A stretch of 64,000 nucleotides of DNA, from the NCBI GenBank assembly GCA_964016885.1, contig OZ024742.1, forward strand, positions 341,992,001 through 342,056,000. Direction: 5' to 3'. The notes under the pieces were generated by a model that had not been told where the DNA came from, did not search any database, and worked only from the letters and a program-made list of their open reading frames with translations. The DNA is from Eledone cirrhosa. Taxonomy: Eukaryota. Below are positions 4,743 through 51,166 of this stretch, in pieces. Position 1 is the first letter of the stretch. Every line of letters begins with the position of its first letter. A program made the position numbers and the translations under genes.

Positions 4743-4853
<111 letters not shown>

Positions 4854-4987
4854 CAAGTGAGGTTTTTTTTACAAAAGGAAAAATAACCGAGGTGTCCTAC
4901 ACGAGTGAAAATATAAAGAAAAAGAGATGAAATCGAAAATGCAACTGGAGTCTTATTTTTTTTTAAAATATATATATTTATTTGGTT

Positions 4988-5025
4988 CCTTTACCGGTTT
5001 CGCAGTTCTTCTGCTTTTCAAAAGG
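4988..5025 (-). ncRNA. Minimal type I hammerhead, U3-A8 core
   Basis: cctt-TTGAAAA-gcag aagaa ctgc-GAAA-ccgg-TA-aagg. Confidence 0.75.
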
Positions 5026-5200
5026 TGAGTTGAGATGGAGGGTCTGTGGTTTTTCTCACATCTCTATATATGTAAGTTGAATCTTGGTGTACAGCTTATT
5101 CTGGATGGCTCAGTGTTAAGTAGAAGGTAGAGTTGTCTGTGGAATACTCAACCACATGTAGACATAGGCATGACTGAGTAGTTAAGAAGTTCGCAGTAAA

Positions 5201-18465: not shown

Positions 18466-20643
18466 TAGGGCGGGTAAAATTCCCGAGATCCATGGACGAG
18501 TTCTCTCCAGCGTTCTCTGTCCTTCATTATCGCTGCCATGTCCTGCATCTCCAACAGACCACAGTGTCTGTCCTTAGGGCATCAACATATGTTAACCTTG
18601 GTCTTCCTCTTCCAGTGTGTCCATGCAGGGGCTCCCACAGGAGCACTGAATGCAGTGTCAACTCTGGATGTCGGTGAGCATGTCCAGCTAACCTCAGTCT
18701 CCTCTGTGTCACTTTTGAGCTGACTTTTGAGAGGCCCCCATACAGCTCTGAGTTTTTCATCCTCAGTGTATACTGATTAATGTTCAGAGCCATCCTCAGC
18801 ATTCTGGTGTAGCACCCATCCACCATCTGAGTGAGTTTCTTGGTCAGTATCCAAGTCTCAGACCCGTACAGCAGCACAGACTCCACTACAGCAATGAAGA
18901 GGCGGATCTTCAGGTCCTCACGTAGGTCCGACTTCCACACCGATCTCAAGCTGTGGCACGCCGCCCAGGCTTTGCTCTTCCTCTCAACCACATCATCTTC
19001 CGTATTCCCAATCTTTGCTCCCAAATACAGGAAGTCCTCAACCAATTCTAGCAGCTTCCCGCCTACATTAGTGATCCCCTCTGGCTTCTCAACATTCTCT
19101 ACCAGACATTTTGTCTTAGTCTCATTCATTCTCAGCCCCACACTCATCGACACAGTCTCAACCTCCTGCATCAAATCTTCTGCCTCCTTCACTGTGTTTG
19201 TCACCAAAACTATGTCGTCGGCAAATTCAGCATCCGATATCTTTTTCGCCTTAACTCTCCTGCTCTGAGCCGGTGTTACAGTAAATCCAGAGTCCTGATG
19301 TTTCTCCAGTGCAAGGCGCATACAATAGTCCACTACGATGATAAAAAGGTAGGGAGCCAATGTATCTCCCTGGAGCACGCCAGCCAGTATCTCAAAGAAT
19401 TCTGTCATCCCATCAGGTGTAATGATTTGGGCTTGGTGTTGGTGTAGAGCAGTAATATCAGGTCCACTATCTTCTTGGGAATTCCATAAGCCTGTAAGAT
19501 CTTCACCAGGCAGTGACGGTCCAGAGAATCAAAGGCCTTCCTAAAGTCAATGAAAACCATGACCGCAAGAAGGCACTTTGCTCTAGCTCCCTCTAATATC
19601 CTCCTCAGCATCAGGATGTGACTGGTGGTTGATCCTCCTTCTCTGAAGCCGTTCTGGTTGTCCCTGAGCTTCTTCTCCATCTCGGATCCTGTTAAGAATC
19701 ATCCTGTTGAGGGTCTTTGCCACAAGTGACGTCAGTGAGATTCCCCTGTAGTTGTTGGTGTTAGAGAGATCTCCCTCCTTTGGCACTAGGACGATGTTAC
19801 TGATCCTCCACTGATTCGGGGCAACTCCTTTCTCCAGTGCCCAGTTACAGAACCCCAGGATGATATCATCAAAATCACACCACTTCATCACCTCTGATGC
19901 CACTCCATCTTCTCCATGAGCCTTGCCCTCCTTGATCTGCTTCTTGGCTCTCTGAAGCTCCTCTCTGGTGAAAGGCTGTCTCAATATCCAGTTCCTCAAA
20001 CAGCTGCCTGATCTCCCCAGTGTTCTGGGCTGTGGAGGGCGGCTCTCCTAGTAGGGTCCTAAAATTGTCCAGCCATTTCTCCTTCCTATCCTCGGGCCCT
20101 GTTCCCTGGATCTGACTCCAACACCTTCTCTTCCTCCCTGTGATCTCGATGATGATCATCCAGCTCTCCTTACATCCAGACCTGTCAACCGCTCTCTCCA
20201 CACTTCTGATCTTCTCTATCAGTGCCTCCTCTCTGTCCTCAGTATAAGCGGTACAGATTTCTTCCCTCATCACTTCCACATTCTCCTTCCTCTCCTCCGT
20301 AGGATCAGCATAGAATTGGTCCTTGACAGCTTTCAGGTGTTCTCTGGCTGCACACACTTTTGGGTCAGCAGAGCTGACATGCTTGCTTTTGTTCTTTCTC
20401 CTCGGCACCAGGGTCTCACTTGCTTCCGCCACTGCATTGATGAAGTACCCGTACCTCCTCGTCACACTCTCTTCAGTCCATCCAATCTCTCTCTCCTCTG
20501 TCTCTCCACACAGAACACTGAACCTGTTCCACTGTGAACCTCTCCTGTAGCTTATCATCTTCCTTGAAAACTCCCCAGTCATAGATTGCTCTCAGGGGCT
20601 GAGCCTTGCTCTTTCTTAAGCTCACCCGGACCTCACTCATAAC
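18466..20643 (-). mobile_element. RTE-group (RTE/RTEX/Proto2-like) LINE, RT and 3' portion, frameshifted
   Basis: ORF pieces NYRGISLTS, NQNGFREG, FIDFRKAFDS, GVLQGDTLAPYLF, FADD, FLYLG, LLYGSETW; ends at GSREFYPP* directly against a (TA)n tract. Confidence 0.92.
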
Positions 20644-21036
20644 ATAATTGTTCTGGGTATGACATTAAACAATCCAGTGGCAAGGCTCCAGTTCGGGAGT
20701 TCAGGAGCAGTGGGGAATGTGGAGTTATCCCTTAGTTGTCATGTCTCCCAGGTCTGCTCTGGCCCGGAGTAGTAGTACATGTTAGGGCCCCATTTATGGG
20801 TTAAATAACTACCTTACTCGAGTGGTGCCGGTAAGGTATTGTCAACTATTGAAAAGAAATATGGAGAGTCTATCTAACAGCACTAGGGTTAGAACCCCTA
20901 ACTACACTGTCAAGGAGCAGTCTGGTCGTTATGACTCTACTGGCTTAGAACTACAGGGAGGTCCAGTGGATGATGGATCAGCTATCTCTGAGACAAATAT
21001 AAAGAATTCAGTTTTGTCCTGCAGAAGACCATCAAA

Positions 21037-21686
21037 ATGGGCACTTTGAATGTGAGGACTATTCGGACGCTGGAGAAGAGGGAGGAGTTTGGTCATCTAT
21101 TCGAGGAGAGTGGTATACAGATACTTGCGATCCAAGAACACAGGATCCTACACGATGAGCCCGTGAGGAGTGTGATGATTGGGAAGATGAGCCAGCTCAT
21201 CACCACATCGGCAGTGAGGAACATGACCAATGCTGCAGTGGGAGGAGTGGGTTTTGATTTCAGCACAAAAACCAGTCTATTGGTGAGGGAAATAATACCT
21301 GCCTCCCCGCGAGTGTTGAAGGTGATCTTCAATGGAAACCCAAGACTGAGTCATCTTACCCTATAGTTCAACCGAGGGAGACAGTGATGTGAGTGCGGAA
21401 GAGTTCCATGAGGAGGTGTGTAGAGCTGTCACACCACACAAGCACACGACATCCTGGTTGTTCTAGGGGACTTCAATGCACATCTGAGTAAGGAGGGCAG
21501 TGAAGATCCTTGCTGGTACTTCTATAACAACACCAACCGAAATGGAAGACTACTGAGAGACACCCTGCTGGAGGCGAACTTGATAGCGACCAACCTAAGG
21601 TTTAGGAAGAATCCGGGAAAGATATGGACCTACATCTCAGATATGCACCTGTCCAAGTCCCAGATTGATTTCTTTCTGGTGAGGAA
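21037..21686 (+). pseudogene. APE endonuclease domain of the same LINE, inverted relative to the RT
   Basis: GTLNVRT, ILAIQEHR, LGDFNAH, TNRNG, WTY and SQIDFFLVR motifs; ends at (TA)n before the expected SDH motif. Confidence 0.9.
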
Positions 21687-22587
21687 TATATATATATATA
21701 TATATATGAATAAAGTTAGTCCTTCATCAGTGATCTTCCAACCATCATTGGTATTTCATCGCTTTAAAGACCATATACCTCCGGTTGGTGCGAGCAACGG
21801 CTAAAAAAAGTTGTTGGGACAGGTAATTAAAGGGGACACGAGTGTAAACAAACAAAATGGTGAAGCAACGAAAAGTGGGGAAAAAGGAGTCAAGTCCCAA
21901 ATTTCTATGAATTTAAATTCGGTGAAATCGTGAACGAAAGAGAATAAAGACCATCAAACCTGGTTGGAATGTAAGCAAGGAAGGAATTCCGTACATGTCT
22001 AACGGGAGGAAGAAGGGATCTAGTCTGTGATTTCGGTGAACGTAAGTTCTGTGAAATCGTAGACGAGAGAGAGAGAAAAAAAAGCGACCTGCCAGACCAA
22101 GGGTGCGAAAGAAAAGAATTACGCACAGGTCAAACGGGAAGAAGGAGGAGGAGGAGAGGTAGTAACAGAGAATGAGTGAGTGAAGGGTGAGGAAGAGGCT
22201 AACAGAGAGAGTGACTGCTAGAGAGGGTAAAGATACAGAGAAAGCGAAATAGACGTGTAACAGCGGGGGAAAAGATATGTGTAAATATGAGAAAAACGTG
22301 CTGCTGGGTTGCTAATGGGTTACATATGAATAAAGTTAGTCCTTCATCAGTGATCTTCCAACCATCATTGGTATTTCATCGCTTTAAAGACCATATACCT
22401 CCGGTTGGTGCGAGCAACGGCTAAAAAAAGTCGTTGGGACACGTAATTCAAATTAGAAGCTACATTCTTAGCGAGTATTTATTTTCTAATTTCAAATTTC
22501 AAACCTGCTCACTGTTTCAAAACATACTTCCTTGTCATTTATACTCGCTAAGAATGTAGCTTCTAATTTGAATGGAAGGAGATGGGT

Positions 22588-22658
22588 GATGTGTTGGTGC
22601 AATGGTATCACAGTGGTCTGGATAACCAAAGATGTGGGTTCGACTCCCATGTACATCA
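22588..22658 (+). ncRNA. tRNA-like cloverleaf (anticodon position GGA, no long variable arm) inside a repeat element
   Basis: GATGTGT/GTACATC acceptor, GTG/CAC D-stem, TGGT/ACCA anticodon stem, GTGGG-TTCGACT-CCCAT T arm; A box TGGTGCAATGG, B box GGTTCGACTCC; T5 about 10 nt downstream. Confidence 0.7.
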
Positions 22659-26421: not shown

Positions 26422-28718
26422 GTAGCGGCGCTTGAACACCCGAGTTTTCTTGACCTTCATAAGTTTCAATCACCCATTTTTTTCTGCCATCTTTGGTCCT
26501 CTTTTTTCTTTTTCTTCTTTCCCCTCTCCTTCCCCAACGTCTCTTCTTTCGTTTCCTTATTCTTACCAGCGGCCAACCTGGAGCAGTCTGCAACTAATCC
26601 AGGCTCTGCTGCACTTCTGGCCGAGGAGGGTAAACTCTCCAAATATAGGTCGCTTTCCAACAGGTTTGTGGTTGAGCCCGTAGCAGTGTCGACAGCTAGT
26701 GTCCTTGGCCCTAGGACCACCTCCCTACACACCACCATCGGTTTGGAGTTGGCTACCCACAGGTGTGAACCTCGCTAGTTGGAATGACTCTTCCAACGCA
26801 CCTCTCTCACCATCCTCTGGGGAAAGGCCTTCTCTATTCTGTCAGCCGGGACCGCGTGGGCTCTCATTTGTATATAATAGTGAGAGATAGGGAGAGCGAG
26901 AGAGATGGAGGCAGTGAGTGAAAAAGAGAGAAAATCATCACACACATGCAAGGGAGAGATCGTTCAGCAAATTATCACTCATAAAGATTTAACTGAGAGT
27001 CATGTTGACCAACAAAAGAACATCCCCTCTCCAGACCTGAGTACAAATAAAGAGAGTGAGAGATATAAGGGAAAAATCGATCCCAGTACTAAACTGCTAC
27101 TTATTTCTCGACCTTGAATGGATGAAAGGTAAAGTTGACCTCGGTGGGATTTAAAGTGGGAGAACGGAGAGCCGACAAAACATGGTGTGGTAGGGACCCG
27201 TAACTTAAGAGAGAGACGTAGGAATGCCATATTTATATACGGAGATTTTATTATTATTTTTTGAAACCTGGCAAAGAACATCCTTTCACCAAACCTGAGC
27301 ACAGCAGATTTCTTTTTCCAGAGAAGGATACAGAGAGTGAGAGAAAGGAAATGAGGAAGAAATATAGAGTACGAATCGACCCAGCACTAAACTGGTACTT
27401 TTTATCGACCTCGAATCAAATAAATGAAAGGCAAGTTGACCTCAGAGATTTGAACTCAGAGACCAGGTAGCCGATACGAATACCACAAAGCACTCTATCC
27501 AACGTTCTAACGACTCTACTAATTCGCCGCCTTGTTACCTGTTTTAAACTTAACTATTTTACCTATTTTAAACATACCTTTAAAAAAAGAAAGCCATTGT
27601 ACACTTCACTAAATTAATACCTTTGCTCTGCTAACACTAGACATAACTAATCAAGAAAGATTTGATCTTTGCTCTTTGAACTCTGCTGCTGGTAATCGAA
27701 CTTTGTGGAGAGAGATATCTCATGTTAATGCGCAGTCTGCAACTGGCGGAGTTTAGCGTCACAAAATCAAGAAAGAAATCATTCGAACCAGAGATCTTTC
27801 AACAGGAATCTTAGTTCACTCACTATCAGAGACATTATACTGTGTCACATTTTCTCTCACAACCTCACCTAACAGCAAACTAACAGAATAATGGTAAATG
27901 AAGACAACAGACCTAAACCACCGTCCAAATGGTTCATGTATTTATATTTATATGAATTGATATGTATGTATGCAACCGGCAACCCCACCAAGTTTATTTG
28001 GTGAGGAGGATGATTTTGGACACCCTACAGGACAAAAACAAAACCTGACAAAGGGCGGGACACCCGATCGCTTGGTTAAACCACTGAGGGTGAAGGACCC
28101 CTAGCATTTGTCAGGGCATCCTTCTAGGAGAAGGCAACTCTGGAAACTGGCATAACTCCGATATAAAACCTGCGGCTCAGTAGTTACCGAAGATGTTGAC
28201 CTTTTCTTCTTTTCGGATTATAGCTACTGTGGCTCAGAGAGTGGGATTTGGCTCAGTGCACAGTCTTCCCTCACTTTAAAAAATATCTTCACGCACAGGC
28301 ATTACCGTACGGTAAGGGTAATTATAGCAGGTATAGTGAACTTTTTAAAATTTATTTTTAAACTTTTTCTTATTTGCTAAACCTTGATTATATATGTTCT
28401 GGCTCGTTAATTTATTAACCTGACATAGAACCACATTAGTATACGGTTGGATAATACATGTGTCCCTATATGCATTTTGCATGTAGGAAAACATACTTTA
28501 TTATTATTGATCTCCCCTGGTCGAGATAACATTTTGGTCGTTTTAACTGCTGCTATTTCTAGTGGCAGTACATTGACCTTTCCGCCCCTGCCTTCTATCT
28601 TTACACACGGCACTAGACAAGATTGTTTCTTCATCATACACTCTCATCCGGGAATAGTTCTGTATGGCGCCAGTTCGTGATTTGAACTCGGGAATTTGAT
28701 ATTCTCCGAGTGAGAAGA

Positions 28719-28802
28719 ACCCTCTGACGAAAGTCTTCTTCTCAATGTATTTCCGCATGGATTATCCATTTATTTTGAGACTTGAAACCGCGCGGTAAGG
28801 GT
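28719..28802 (+). ncRNA. Type I hammerhead, canonical core
   Basis: accct-CTGACGA-aagtct..agactt-GAAA-ccgcgcgg-TA-agggt. Confidence 0.85.
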
Positions 28803-28869
28803 AATTATAGCAGATATAGTGAACTTTTTAAAATTTATTTTAAAACTTGTTCTTATTTGCTAAACCTTG

Positions 28870-28910
<41 letters not shown>

Positions 28911-28942: not shown

Positions 28943-28999
<57 letters not shown>

Positions 29000-29207
29000 C
29001 GTTTCTGAATTTGTTTAGCAAGATTCTTTATCTGAAAACGTGTGTTGAAACCGATATTGTTATACTTTGGGAGGGTCATGTTGCCAATAAGAAACACACG
29101 CACCAGTTGCTTTCACTTCAATTTATTATAATAAATTTATAAATTTAGGAATTTATAAATTTCCGGTTGGTTGGTTGGTTCCACAACCAGATGGTTGTTT
29201 ATATATT

Positions 29208-29250
29208 GTCAAAGTTCTTTCGTCACACATTCTGTGACCTCTTCAGTGAC
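29208..29250 (-). ncRNA. Minimal type I hammerhead
   Basis: gtca-CTGAAGA-g gtcaca gaatg tgtgac-GAAA-gaac-TT-tgac. Confidence 0.72.
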
Positions 29251-29620
29251 TGGGGATTCTTTTCTTTGTTTTTTTGTGCCTCTCCTTTGTTCTGTCCTAC
29301 GCCATCTTGTTTTTGTGTGTCTATATATAAATATATGTATATATATATACATATGTGTGTGTGTAGGTGTGTGTTTGTATGTATATATATGTGTGTGTGT
29401 GTAGTATACATTTATGTTTGAGTGAGTGTGGGAGGGGCAGGAATTTTTAATCACCTTATCTCTTGTACGTAATCGTTTATCTAAATAAATTATATTTCTT
29501 AGTTCGCTAAACACAATAGCTAATCATGTGAAAACTGTTTCATTAAGTGAATATGCATATATATATATATATATATATATACACTTCTGTATATATGTAT
29601 ATGTATGTATTTATGTATGA

Positions 29621-37001: not shown

Positions 37002-38297
37002 TAAGAGGTCCAGTCAAAGAGTAATACCTTTTTATCGTAACAACTCATTTTTTTATAGAATGAGTTGAAATATCTCAACTTGTTTTTCAGATTTGTATAA
37101 GTAACTGCGTTGATTTCAATGGCCGCCCCCTTGGAAGTCCGTCAGAAGCAAAGAGCAGTAATTGAATTCCTTGTTGCTAAAGGAAAAACTCCTGTTAACA
37201 TTCACAAGAGATTAAGAAATGTTTATAAAGGTGACGCCTTAGTCTATAAGAATGTCTGTAGAAGAGCCCATCGTCTGAATGAAGAGGAAGAGGTGGGAAC
37301 TGCAAGATTAGCAGACAGGCCTCGGGCTGGCCACACGTCAACTTCAGTCAACCCTGCCAACAAAGCAAAAGCTGACGCTTAATCAGAGTTGATAGGTGCA
37401 TAACCCTTGACGAGTTGACATTAGATCTTGGAGTAAGTCATGGTAGTGTCCACAGCATTGTTGATTCACTTGGGTTTACAAAAGTCTGTGTCCGTTGGGT
37501 ACCAAGACAATTCACAGTTGGGCATAAGACTAAAAGGGGTAATTACTGCACTGAGCTCCTTGAGTTCAGTCAAAGATACAACACGTTCTTTACAAGGCTC
37601 ATTACAGGTGATGAAACTTGGATTCATCATTATGAACCTGAGTCAAAAAGGCAATCGGTGGAATGGCGTCACCCGACGTCTCCAATAAATAAAACGTTCA
37701 AGGCACAAATGTCAGCAGAAAAAATCATGGCGACTGTCTTTTGGGATACTCAAGGAGTGATTCCTATTGATTTCTTGCCAAGAAGAGAAACAATTAACTC
37801 TGAAGCATATATTGAGACACTAGAAATACTAAAAGCAAGAATTCGACGAGTAAGACCCGACTTGGAGATGAATAAAGTTCTTCTTCAACACGACAATGCC
37901 AGACCTCACACAAGCATCAGGACAAAGGAAGAAATCACCTCATTTGGGTGGACAACTCTGCTTCACCCTCCATACTCACATTGAATGGCATCCTCAGACT
38001 ACTCCCACTTCTTCGGTCCCATGAAAGAAGCATTGAGAGGCCACCATTATGGAAATGGTGAGGAAGTGAAAACTGCTGTCAAGAATTGGCTTCATGAGCA
38101 ACCAGCAGAGTTTTATAAAGCTGGGATACAGGACCTCAATGTGGAATTTTGCTATCGAAAGAGGTGAGGACTATGTTGAGAAGTAGGAATGTGATACTCT
38201 GATGTACAGCTTCATTTTGATGTATAATACATTGTCTTTTGTTCATTATTTTTCTTGCAATAAAACGAAAGGCATTACTTTGTTATTGGTCCTCATA
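37002..38297 (+). mobile_element. Mariner (DD34D) transposon, about 1.3 kb, inactive
   Basis: Imperfect TIRs taagaggtccagtcaaagagtaatacct / aggcattactttgttattggtcctcata, flanked by TA. Confidence 0.93.
37119..38167 (+). pseudogene. Mariner transposase pseudogene
   Basis: QRAVIEFL HTH region, WVPR, ITGDETW, HDNARPH, and HPPYSH*MASSD (decayed YSPDLAPSD) with 34 positions between the 2nd and 3rd Asp; frameshift near 37380, stop at 37982-37984. Confidence 0.93.
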
Positions 38298-38457: not shown

Positions 38458-38529
38458 TGACCCTGACGTGATTCGAACACGCAGCCTTCTGATCTGGAGT
38501 CAGACGCGCTACCGTTGCGCCACAGGGCC
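38458..38529 (-). tRNA. tRNA-Trp: tRNA-Trp (anticodon CCA)
   Basis: GGCCCTGTGGCGCAACGGTAGCGCGTCTGACTCCAGATCAGAAGGCTGCGTGTTCGAATCACGTCAGGGTCA: 72 nt, full cloverleaf, A and B boxes, closely matches metazoan tRNA-Trp. Confidence 0.96.
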
Positions 38530-42287: not shown

Positions 42288-42373
42288 TATATATATATAT
42301 AAAGAAAAAGAGATGAAATCGAAAATGCAACTGAAGTCTTATTTTTTTTTTAAATATATATATTTATTTGGTT

Positions 42374-42411
42374 CCTTTACCGGTTTCGCAGTTCTTCTGC
42401 TTTTCAAAAGG
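42374..42411 (-). ncRNA. Minimal type I hammerhead, U3-A8 core (left arm of fold-back)
   Basis: Same 38-mer as 4988-5025. Confidence 0.75.
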
Positions 42412-42480
42412 TGAGTTGAGATGGAGGGTCTGTGGTTTTTCTCATGTGATGAAAAACCACAGACCCTCCATCTCAACTCA

Positions 42481-42518
42481 CCTTTTGAAAAGCAGAAGAA
42501 CTGCGAAACCGGTAAAGG
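42481..42518 (+). ncRNA. Minimal type I hammerhead, U3-A8 core (right arm of fold-back)
   Basis: cctt-TTGAAAA-gcag aagaa ctgc-GAAA-ccgg-TA-aagg. Confidence 0.75.
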
Positions 42519-42728
42519 AACCAAATAAATATATATATTTAAAAAAAAAATAAGACTTCAGTTGCATTTTCGATTTCATCTCTTTTTCTTTATACTTCCA
42601 CTCGTGTAGGACACCTCGGTTATTTTTCATTTTGTAAAAAAAACCTCACTTTCTAATATATATATATATATATACATATAATAACCTTGTATGTATATGT
42701 ATATATATACGTGTGTGTGTGTACATAT

Positions 42729-45553: not shown

Positions 45554-45632
45554 ACATCCACTGAAGAGCAATCGGATTAGTAACTCGCTCCACTTTGTTG
45601 CGAAACAGTTTTACCAAAGACTGTTTGGATGT
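45554..45632 (+). ncRNA. Type I hammerhead, canonical core, monomeric stem III
   Basis: acatcca-CTGAAGA-gcaa..ttgc-GAAA-cagt..actg-TT-tggatgt. Confidence 0.85.
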
Positions 45633-49600: not shown

Positions 49601-51166
49601 CTCATATATATGTACATATATATATATATATATATACGTATATGTATGTACATATACACACACACATATATATAAGGTAAAAAGATGAAATCGAAAATGC
49701 AACTGGAGTCTTATTTTTAAAAAATTATATATATCTATTTGGTTCCTTTGGTAAAGGAACCAAATAAATATATATAATTTTTTTAAAATAAGACTCCAGT
49801 TGCATTTTCGATTTCATCTGTTTTCCTTATACTTTCACTCGTGTAGGACACCTCGGTTATTTTTCATTTTGTAAAAAGAAACCTCACTTTATAATATATA
49901 TATATATAGGGACGGTGAGGCATAACAACAACAGGCTGCTACGATCGTCTCTGGGTCAAAAACGAAAACACTATTTTTTCTTCTCTGTATGTTTGTTTTT
50001 TTTGGTTTTTTCCTTAAAGCCTCTTGGAATATGTTTACCATCCAAGAACATAACACAACCCAGGACATAACACAACCCACGACATTATGATTGTAAGTCC
50101 AACACTCTTAACACGAGGTCGTGCCCCTCCACTCATATTAGATATCTTCGACGAAACATATTCACTTCTCAAGTTGGCATGACTAGAATGGTTTAATGGT
50201 GGATTTAGGCATGAGGCCAATAATTGGAGGGTTGATTAAATTGACCCAGTGCATTACTGGTACTTTATTTTTTCGACCCCGTAAAGATGAAAGATAAAGC
50301 TAACCTCGGTGGGATTTGAATTCAGAGTGTAAAGGGCCGTAACTCTATACTGTAAAGCATGTCCGACGCTCTACCGATAGGAAAAGAGAATGAGCTCTAG
50401 ATAAAGTGTTTACATACAGATATAGTCTCACCCTCTAGATAAGGTTACTGGGGGAAAACAAACTTTAATGAACCGGGTCTATCCCCACAATTTCTCGACC
50501 GAAACTCCCTTTATGTTTGACTGGGTCCACTCCCACTACATTGTCTGGTTGTTGAGAATGTTTAAGAGACAAGCTATTCTGAAGAAAATTAATTAAGTTT
50601 TTTATACTAGTCTTTCTCTCGAAAATGTTTTTTTTTTTTTTTTGAGGTTTACAGCTGGAATGAATTATATAAAATAAAATATCTTCGATTCTACGTTTAA
50701 CGATAAATTGTTAAATATCGTAGAGGCTGACGGCATCTGTGTGATAAACAATAGTTGGGGTTAAGAAAAAAAGCTAGCCAATGCATGACTACAGGGGAGA
50801 TGACTTATAAAAATGTACTCGGTATGCTTATTTAGAGTTATGTCCCTTGAATTTGGATAGAATGCTTTACGGTATTCGTCCCAACCCTGTGTGTTGTGTT
50901 CACATCCCACCATGGTCAACTTTGCCCTTCATCGTTTCGAGGTCGATAAAGAAATACCAGTCCAGTACTGGGGGTCAATTCTTCTTCTATAGAAATAAAT
51001 TGGCTGTGTTCAGACTAGCAGAGGGTTGGGCTTCGCCAGGTTTAAAAGTGCCCTAGACACGCCGTATGACAGTGCCTCTACGACTCCACAAGGAGTTATG
51101 GATCTTTATCCTTATCCCTTGAATATATTGCTGCACTAACGGGGAAATGGACTCATATATAGTGTG

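Follow-up and report, generated by a model that had tools for sequence, protein, structure and literature searches.

The window analysed here comprises 64,000 nucleotides of the microsatellite-rich, 3.0-Gb genome of Eledone cirrhosa (assembly GCA_964016885.1, contig OZ024742.1, positions 341,992,001 to 342,056,000, forward strand). On its plus strand it harbors an insert composed of 11 nt, then 483 nt and then about 77 nt, which begins at 28304 and runs into a (TA)18 microsatellite (28872..28907, strand undefined), the putative target and primer site. The insert contains a direct repeat, 28304-28395 and 28787-28878, whose two copies are spaced 483 nt apart and carry 5 differences in 92 nt. The 483 nt that extend from one predicted cut site to the next (28315..28797) constitute a monomer and a predicted circular RNA. 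Upstream of it, a 5′-truncated remnant of a preceding unit (28304..28314) retains stem III and the cut site of a hammerhead ribozyme, with the loop TA instead of CG; downstream, a terminal repeat of monomer positions +1..+77 (28798..28874) resembles a pseudo-LTR and would have been copied first. Because ATTATATAT is part of the unit itself at this point, the 3′ end of the element can be placed only to within a few bases (+74 to +81). An earlier, sequence-only reading of this locus had already noted the post-cut sequence repeated upstream, with that copy beginning in stem III, and the (TA)n end of an insert without a meaningful ORF, all of which are borne out here; its description of the insert as one monomer plus about 77 nt holds for both lengths but not for the start, which lies 11 nt before the upstream cut. 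The longest ATG-initiated ORF inside the insert encodes 76 aa on the minus strand, and an ORF scan of the insert found no reverse transcriptase (RT) plus GIY-YIG frame of an autonomous Penelope-like element (PLE).

The left boundary at 28304 is real: the neighboring repeat, which is cut off there, usually continues with other letters elsewhere. No TSD is present at this 5′ junction. The junction also forms a perfect 14-nt palindrome (28302-28315, TTACCGTACGGTAA), which may have arisen by a very small fold-back, or by two mutations at CpG, and not from another subfamily's loop. Three sequencing runs of one sample, not on record as RNA, yield over the locus the depth of the repeat family and the flank boundary only. 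Measured from its fixed end, the copy spans 571 nt, equivalent to 1.18 turns of the unit, runs past the cut twice, and is about 3% decayed.

The ribozyme motif, a predicted type I hammerhead on the plus strand (28719..28802; predicted cut after 28797), is distinguished by a long stem II extension and a palindromic stem III octamer. Stem I pairs ACCCT (28719-23) with AGGGT (28798-802), the core consists of CTGACGA (28724-30) and GAAA (28784-87), stem II joins 28731-36 to 28778-83, and stem III is CC-GCGC-GG (28788-95), followed by UA at the cut site. The motif thus has the CUGANGA / GAAA / UH core, the three helices, and the open helix I of type I. A strict hammerhead descriptor returned 2 matches in the 64-kb window versus 0 in 100 shuffles. 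Across 18 hammerheads, which represent only about four independent lineages and leave out subfamily G, 8 of the 13 hammerhead pairs exhibit double changes (3/5 in stem I, 5/6 in stem II, with stem III invariant), and 96% of cells, which count sequences, pair as opposed to at most 55% in slid controls. The predicted helices are backed by this covariation across related families, which together with the descriptor confirms the hammerhead motif, with its predicted cut site, that had been proposed previously.

At gathering threshold, Rfam gave no hammerhead match at 28719-28802, for which the long loop II is probably responsible. Energetically, the local MFE is 3 kcal/mol lower than the hammerhead fold, and the predicted MFE of the circle sequesters the hammerhead. 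In a by-eye count, the stem III loop is CG, TA, or AT in 98 of the first 100 matches listed, each of which generates a self-complementary octamer; some loop variants in families D and F (TT, ATT, T) are non-palindromic. The window copy holds one complete hammerhead only. On paper, its single core could conceivably cut the upstream remnant in trans, with weaker pairing than at its own site (−11.5 vs −19.4 kcal/mol). The window has one further canonical type I hammerhead (45554-45626, plus strand), whose stem III is 7 bp long and which is unrelated in sequence to the 483-nt family. Measured against 40 dinucleotide shuffles each, the fold stability of the monomer corresponds to z scores of −4.2 (window copy, circular fold), −4.5 (family D), and −2.2 (family F).

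A first-look search for the window element produced 2,391 candidates in the genome, which are candidates and not a copy number, and exact matches to a 21-letter junction pattern place at least 1,659 cut-site junctions genome-wide, versus 0 for the control. Family D, with a unit of 487 nt, is about 85% identical to the window element, and subfamily G, with a unit of 483 nt, is 73% identical; family F (unit 459-467 nt; 2,281 candidates) is distant but well above shuffles. In family F (L162:6510-7419; loci L247-L276), stem I is fully compensated and a U-U occupies the base of stem II; its arrays contain up to three junctions and end at +82-87 and +192. Multimeric genomic arrays, which the earlier reading had suggested seeking, are thus found in the sister families. 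No three-junction arrays were found in the window's own subfamily and family D, where the maximum is 807 nt. Young G arrays, namely, G000:C1:82116244-82120684 (L307) and about 30 others (L355-L391), are 99-100% identical genome-wide, dispersed, and 1 to 8 full 483-nt units long. In the longest, 8 full units are flanked by a partial one on either side, which amounts to about 8.8 turns; it has an inverted arm, and (TA)n adjoins both of its ends. One place, L360, was mis-merged, and its unit count is therefore too low. Complete hammerheads number up to 9 in a young G array, and two are present in 20 of 48 two-junction B/D arrays.

The young G subfamily was probably active recently or is still so. 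The window copy, with its one complete hammerhead versus two in those B/D arrays, is therefore probably an old, truncated, dead product and no source of new copies. Its intact core invites the alternative that the host has co-opted the ribozyme for a function at this locus. We consider this extremely improbable, as hundreds of copies are just as decayed, the surrounding DNA is rich in repeats, and no gene context was found. Among the relatives, a separate "E" subfamily was considered and rejected: it has just 6 exact matches, 4 in mixed window-family arrays and 2 in family D copies, and its breakpoints are therefore not placeable. Five window-type arrays (L004, L005, L007, L013, L089) carry a short family-D-like patch (+2, +8, +9) at one junction only, and never before a +77 end.

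The anatomy of the insertions was characterized in 154 places of the window's family and family D, or 150 after removal of four segmental duplicates (L057, L102, L136, L137). Their 3′ ends are essentially fixed. The great majority of non-inverted arrays (119/134) end at +74..+87 past a cut, and 135 of the 148 arrays ending at the main site, site A (+74..+81, ATTATATAT; 28388..28395, plus strand, in the window), then run into (TA)5. Site A is the putative first RT start, where ATTATATAT could pair with a nicked (TA)n primer. A second fixed 3′ end, mostly of inverted arms, is site B (about +187..+193; 28497..28508, plus strand), which would be the second RT start and creates a "tail" of about 110 nt. 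A predicted hairpin with weak covariation precedes each site; the one just 5′ of site A (28325..28380, plus strand) is conserved across 15 aligned family members and covaries little. Other TA-rich tracts of the unit, such as that at +153, are not used as ends; position or structure therefore probably matters for end choice.

The 5′ ends are spread over the whole unit, as random truncations, in a sample biased by a first-look search that favors long copies and by pattern searches that demand some bases upstream of the cut. The sequence-only reading held that reverse transcription had gone once round a circular RNA and stopped at the ribozyme. Generalized to the family, this would mean that the RT makes one turn, is stopped by the ribozyme structure, and typically leaves a "monomer plus 77 nt." In keeping with such a stop, 10 of 167 arrays besides the window's start within −14..+5 of a cut (excluding two arrays that continue upstream), and in the older families the hazard of truncation increases as copies lengthen. 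However, 6.9 such starts are expected under uniformity (p=0.15), the adjacent stretch at −30..−15 has a similar start density (7 starts in 16 nt), and in young relatives the ribozyme was passed as many as 9 times, so that a ribozyme stop appears very improbable. Copies of the relatives span 0.2 to about 8.8 turns. A step in the truncation hazard after exactly one turn was considered and found not decisive: the hazard climbs gradually, and two-junction arrays are over-represented in the sample. Only L055 among the 167 arrays starts exactly at +1, and hence there is no strong stop. Without enrichment of starts at the ribozyme, the stem III start of the window copy represents one ordinary truncation point. 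Thus, of the earlier proposal, the circular template is retained as the inferred template while the stop is not, and the end that defines the insertions is not the one at the ribozyme but the invariant 3′ end at +77, the putative RT start.

A further regularity concerns copies arranged as head-to-head inverted pairs. In the window family and family D, 14 of 28 such pairs join a +77 arm to a +190 arm, and +190 ends are carried by 16 of 56 inverted arms versus 2 of 134 non-inverted arrays (p=5e-8). Pairing of site A with site B recurs in 8/9 inverted pairs of family F (by eye) and 13/16 of G, and among the 31 young G places all 21 inverted pairs couple a +80 end with a +188 end (by eye). These insertions display a fixed 3′ end, 5′ truncation, partial tandems, an inverted arm, and a one-sided tail, which together constitute PLE insertion anatomy. 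An ORF-bearing PLE of the same genome presents two-end asymmetry in 16 of 16 pairs, where the +150 arm was selected by the query and the other arm ends at +73..+86. We hold with high confidence that the window family is a PLE-mobilised retrozyme. This supports the retrozyme identity and the 483-nt cut-to-cut monomer advanced in the earlier reading, which was silent on the PLE link (inverted arms, +190 end) and on the single complete hammerhead.

The genome contains 10,597 candidate PLEs, and autonomous RT plus GIY-YIG families with the same insertion anatomy are present. The ORF-bearing family combines RT and GIY-YIG with a cysteine linker, on the basis of which it is read as Neptune-like. Long open frames with RT and C-terminal GIY-YIG, measured stop to stop, lie at L161:2809-5622 (minus strand, 938 aa) and L163:1775-5062 (plus strand, 1,096 aa) and represent candidate active enzymes. 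Within 60 loci of the 10,597 candidates, no sequence common to the retrozyme unit and PLEs was found, apart from unrelated retrozyme insertions. Partner searches by GIY-YIG scan, inspection of the 60 loci, tblastn of flanks, and a shared-flank test likewise returned no partner PLE, and the similarity of the best partner candidate's post-cut region to the unit was not significant versus shuffles.

The window also holds end pieces of the autonomous Neptune-like PLE (42298-42663, 49674-49901, 4843-5063). Two of the three consist of inverted arms, one ending at about +80 and the other at about +150. The hammerhead core of the pieces reads UUGAAAA, which we take to be a U3-A8 swap. Close to the retrozyme, a very abundant repeat end (28998-29330, minus strand) adjoins (TA)n and contains a hammerhead-like CTGAAGA...GAAA with stem I GTCA/TGAC; it is likely another PLE end. 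The remaining features comprise, within 18530-21801 and 37376-37981, broken LINE-type RT and endonuclease fragments and a mariner-type transposase fragment, together with Rfam tRNA matches at 38458-38529 (minus strand, 68 bits) and 22588-22658 (plus strand, 48 bits), the weaker of which may be the head of a tRNA-derived SINE.

The nature of the template can be approached through the junctions and haplotypes of the arrays. Cut-site junctions are seamless in 125 of 131 instances in one set of arrays, 55 of 55 in F (by eye), and 79 of 80 in G; fragmented BLAST matches had hinted at a scar where the cut lies, which alignment ruled out. Repeats inside one insertion have 80 non-majority alleles in common, versus a null of 22.5±5 (78 pairs), and in F the corresponding figures are 99 versus 24.5±6 (54 pairs). 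Subfamily type agrees within 35 of 40 two-junction arrays and is mixed in 5, and divergence within a place is lower than between places in 26 of 26 G places with overlap. Among variants covered by at least two units in the 31 young G places, 50 occur in all units (9 of them place-private), 47 in a single unit, and 6 are partial, some of the last in adjacent units (L308, L372). Both inverted arms of young G arrays carry one haplotype, private variants included. In arrays less than 1% diverged, place-private variants are exemplified by 111T in 7 units of L372 and 250T/450G in both arms of L388.

These patterns bear on two alternatives to a circle. In the first, the PLE enzyme copies uncut, linear multimeric transcripts, slippage, unequal exchange, and conversion keep the arrays uniform and lengthen them, and the hammerhead has another role, for example, in the processing of transcript ends. 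Seamless junctions fit this scheme equally well, and for an anole PLE a 2024 study reports that hammerhead cleavage was dispensable in vitro and that no RNA-seq reads ended at the cut (PMC11167929). The 6 partial variants in young arrays point to some DNA-level tandem turnover, and with the 5 mixed arrays they show another process at work at times; DNA-level tandem turnover or assembly collapse are also possible contributors to array uniformity. Against linear multimers, arrays less than 1% diverged carry private variants that are shared by all units and by both inverted arms, which requires a single-monomer bottleneck. In the older subfamily, moreover, divergence within arrays (5.5%) is so close to the between-place null (6.8%) that the tandems are at most slightly younger than the insertions. 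We consider copying of linear multimers unlikely.

In the second alternative, the template is a cleaved linear monomer: on reaching its 5′ end, the RT switches to the 3′ end of that monomer or of a different one. Such jumping yields the same monomer bottleneck and might have produced, through switches, the five arrays with a family-D-like patch just past the cut. When non-LTR RTs jump end to end, bases are usually gained or lost at the join. Here there is no indel excess at the cut, and the exact +1 start is confined to one array in 167; the combination of seamless junctions with no stop at +1 favors a ligated circle over end-to-end jumps, which we deem quite improbable.

The full mechanism, in which a self-cleaved circular RNA is copied by a Penelope-like reverse transcriptase/endonuclease, is thus our preferred account and, in our judgment, a probable one. 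From the patterns in the DNA we infer cleavage, ligation, a circular template, the action of a PLE enzyme, and a single RNA on which both target ends prime. Loci that retain two complete hammerheads would act as sources, their transcripts being cut to the monomer, probably with the help of a dimeric fold through the palindromic stem III, and the monomer would be ligated into a circle. The PLE enzyme would then nick (TA)n and prime cDNA internally, about 77-80 nt past the ligation site, as the observed ends suggest. In the sequence pattern observed, copying appears to cross the junction seamlessly for 0.2 to about 8.8 units before a random stop. The other target end would often prime at +188-190 on the same RNA haplotype, which could account for the head-to-head inverted arms that are seen. 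On balance, we lean toward reading the whole retrozyme clade as a genomic record of rolling-circle TPRT, in which a Penelope-type enzyme goes round one hammerhead-made circle up to about nine times and the broken target's two ends prime on that circle at two fixed sites separated by about 110 nt, one end at each site in every case.

The kind of element is already known, as this is likely an animal non-LTR retrozyme. Such retrozymes are described as having units of 150-450 bp, and their mobilisation by PLEs as circles has been proposed (Cervera & de la Pena, 2020; PMC7229834). The available text of a 2026 preprint gives units of 51-972 bp, regards retrozymes as non-autonomous PLE derivatives linked by co-occurrence and pLTR similarity, and calls copies with two complete hammerheads "active" (Li, Clavereau, & Pollet, bioRxiv 10.64898/2026.07.22.740005), a status that the window copy, with one, lacks. 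As far as these accounts extend, the present family shares with animal non-LTR retrozymes a non-coding, low-GC tandem unit of a few hundred bp, one canonical type I hammerhead, the absence of LTR, PBS, and PPT, a highly paired predicted monomer, dispersed monomers to multimers, and co-occurrence with PLEs. Its unit of 459-487 nt is slightly above the 150-450 bp of 2020 and within the preprint's 51-972 bp; (TA)n targeting and the lack of a TSD at the window copy also set it apart from the retrozymes in those texts, and its circular RNA is a predicted one. A plant LTR retrozyme, with a type III hammerhead in LTRs, PBS/PPT, and a 4-bp TSD, is ruled out by the type I fold and the absence of a TSD. 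The 2-bp stem III and palindromic loop resemble those of type I hammerheads with palindromic helix III that act as dimers, as described in PMC4209133, the activity here being predicted.

Parallels with endonuclease-positive PLEs are equally extensive. The available descriptions of these elements include partial tandems of the pLTR, an inverted 5′-truncated copy, and a "tail" of 30-40 nt on one inverted pLTR (PMC3846280, PMC8557442), and for the anole Poseidon PLE the accessible text reports an RT that starts internally at two sites and extends both target strands in vitro, explaining the tail (PMC11167929). To the extent of those descriptions, partial tandems, random 5′ truncation, a head-to-head inverted arm, one-arm extension, and AT-rich targets are held in common, and the first end lies 77-87 nt past the cut in the retrozyme family compared to a start about 85-92 nt past the cut in the anole PLE (PMC11167929). 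Unlike PLEs, the retrozyme unit is devoid of an ORF, its tail measures about 110 nt rather than 30-40 nt, its hammerhead is canonical with a long stem II instead of minimal, and, across 60 loci, nothing in its sequence connects it with any one autonomous family.

Papers of 2014 and 2020 had already put forward a circular template to explain copying beyond one unit (PMC4209133, PMC7229834). Fixed internal ends, inverted arms, and array-wide haplotypes, all seen here, are undescribed for animal retrozymes in the available text of PMC7229834 and the 2026 preprint, and the open-access literature, supplements aside, yielded no report of array-wide private haplotypes or strict two-start-site pairing in retrozymes. 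This suggests that what is new here is the genomic evidence, that is, array-wide private haplotypes combined with a strict pairing of two putative start sites in a retrozyme. The insertion anatomy ties the retrozyme to PLE machinery, and the private, array-wide haplotypes favor a single-monomer, circular template. With the role of the hammerhead in PLEs and retrozymes under debate, the young relatives make the proposed mechanism directly testable: the experimental handle is provided by the young sister arrays, of which the window copy is a decayed counterpart. If the mechanism is correct, young G would constitute a natural system in which to prove the circular intermediate proposed for retrozymes and PLEs alike.
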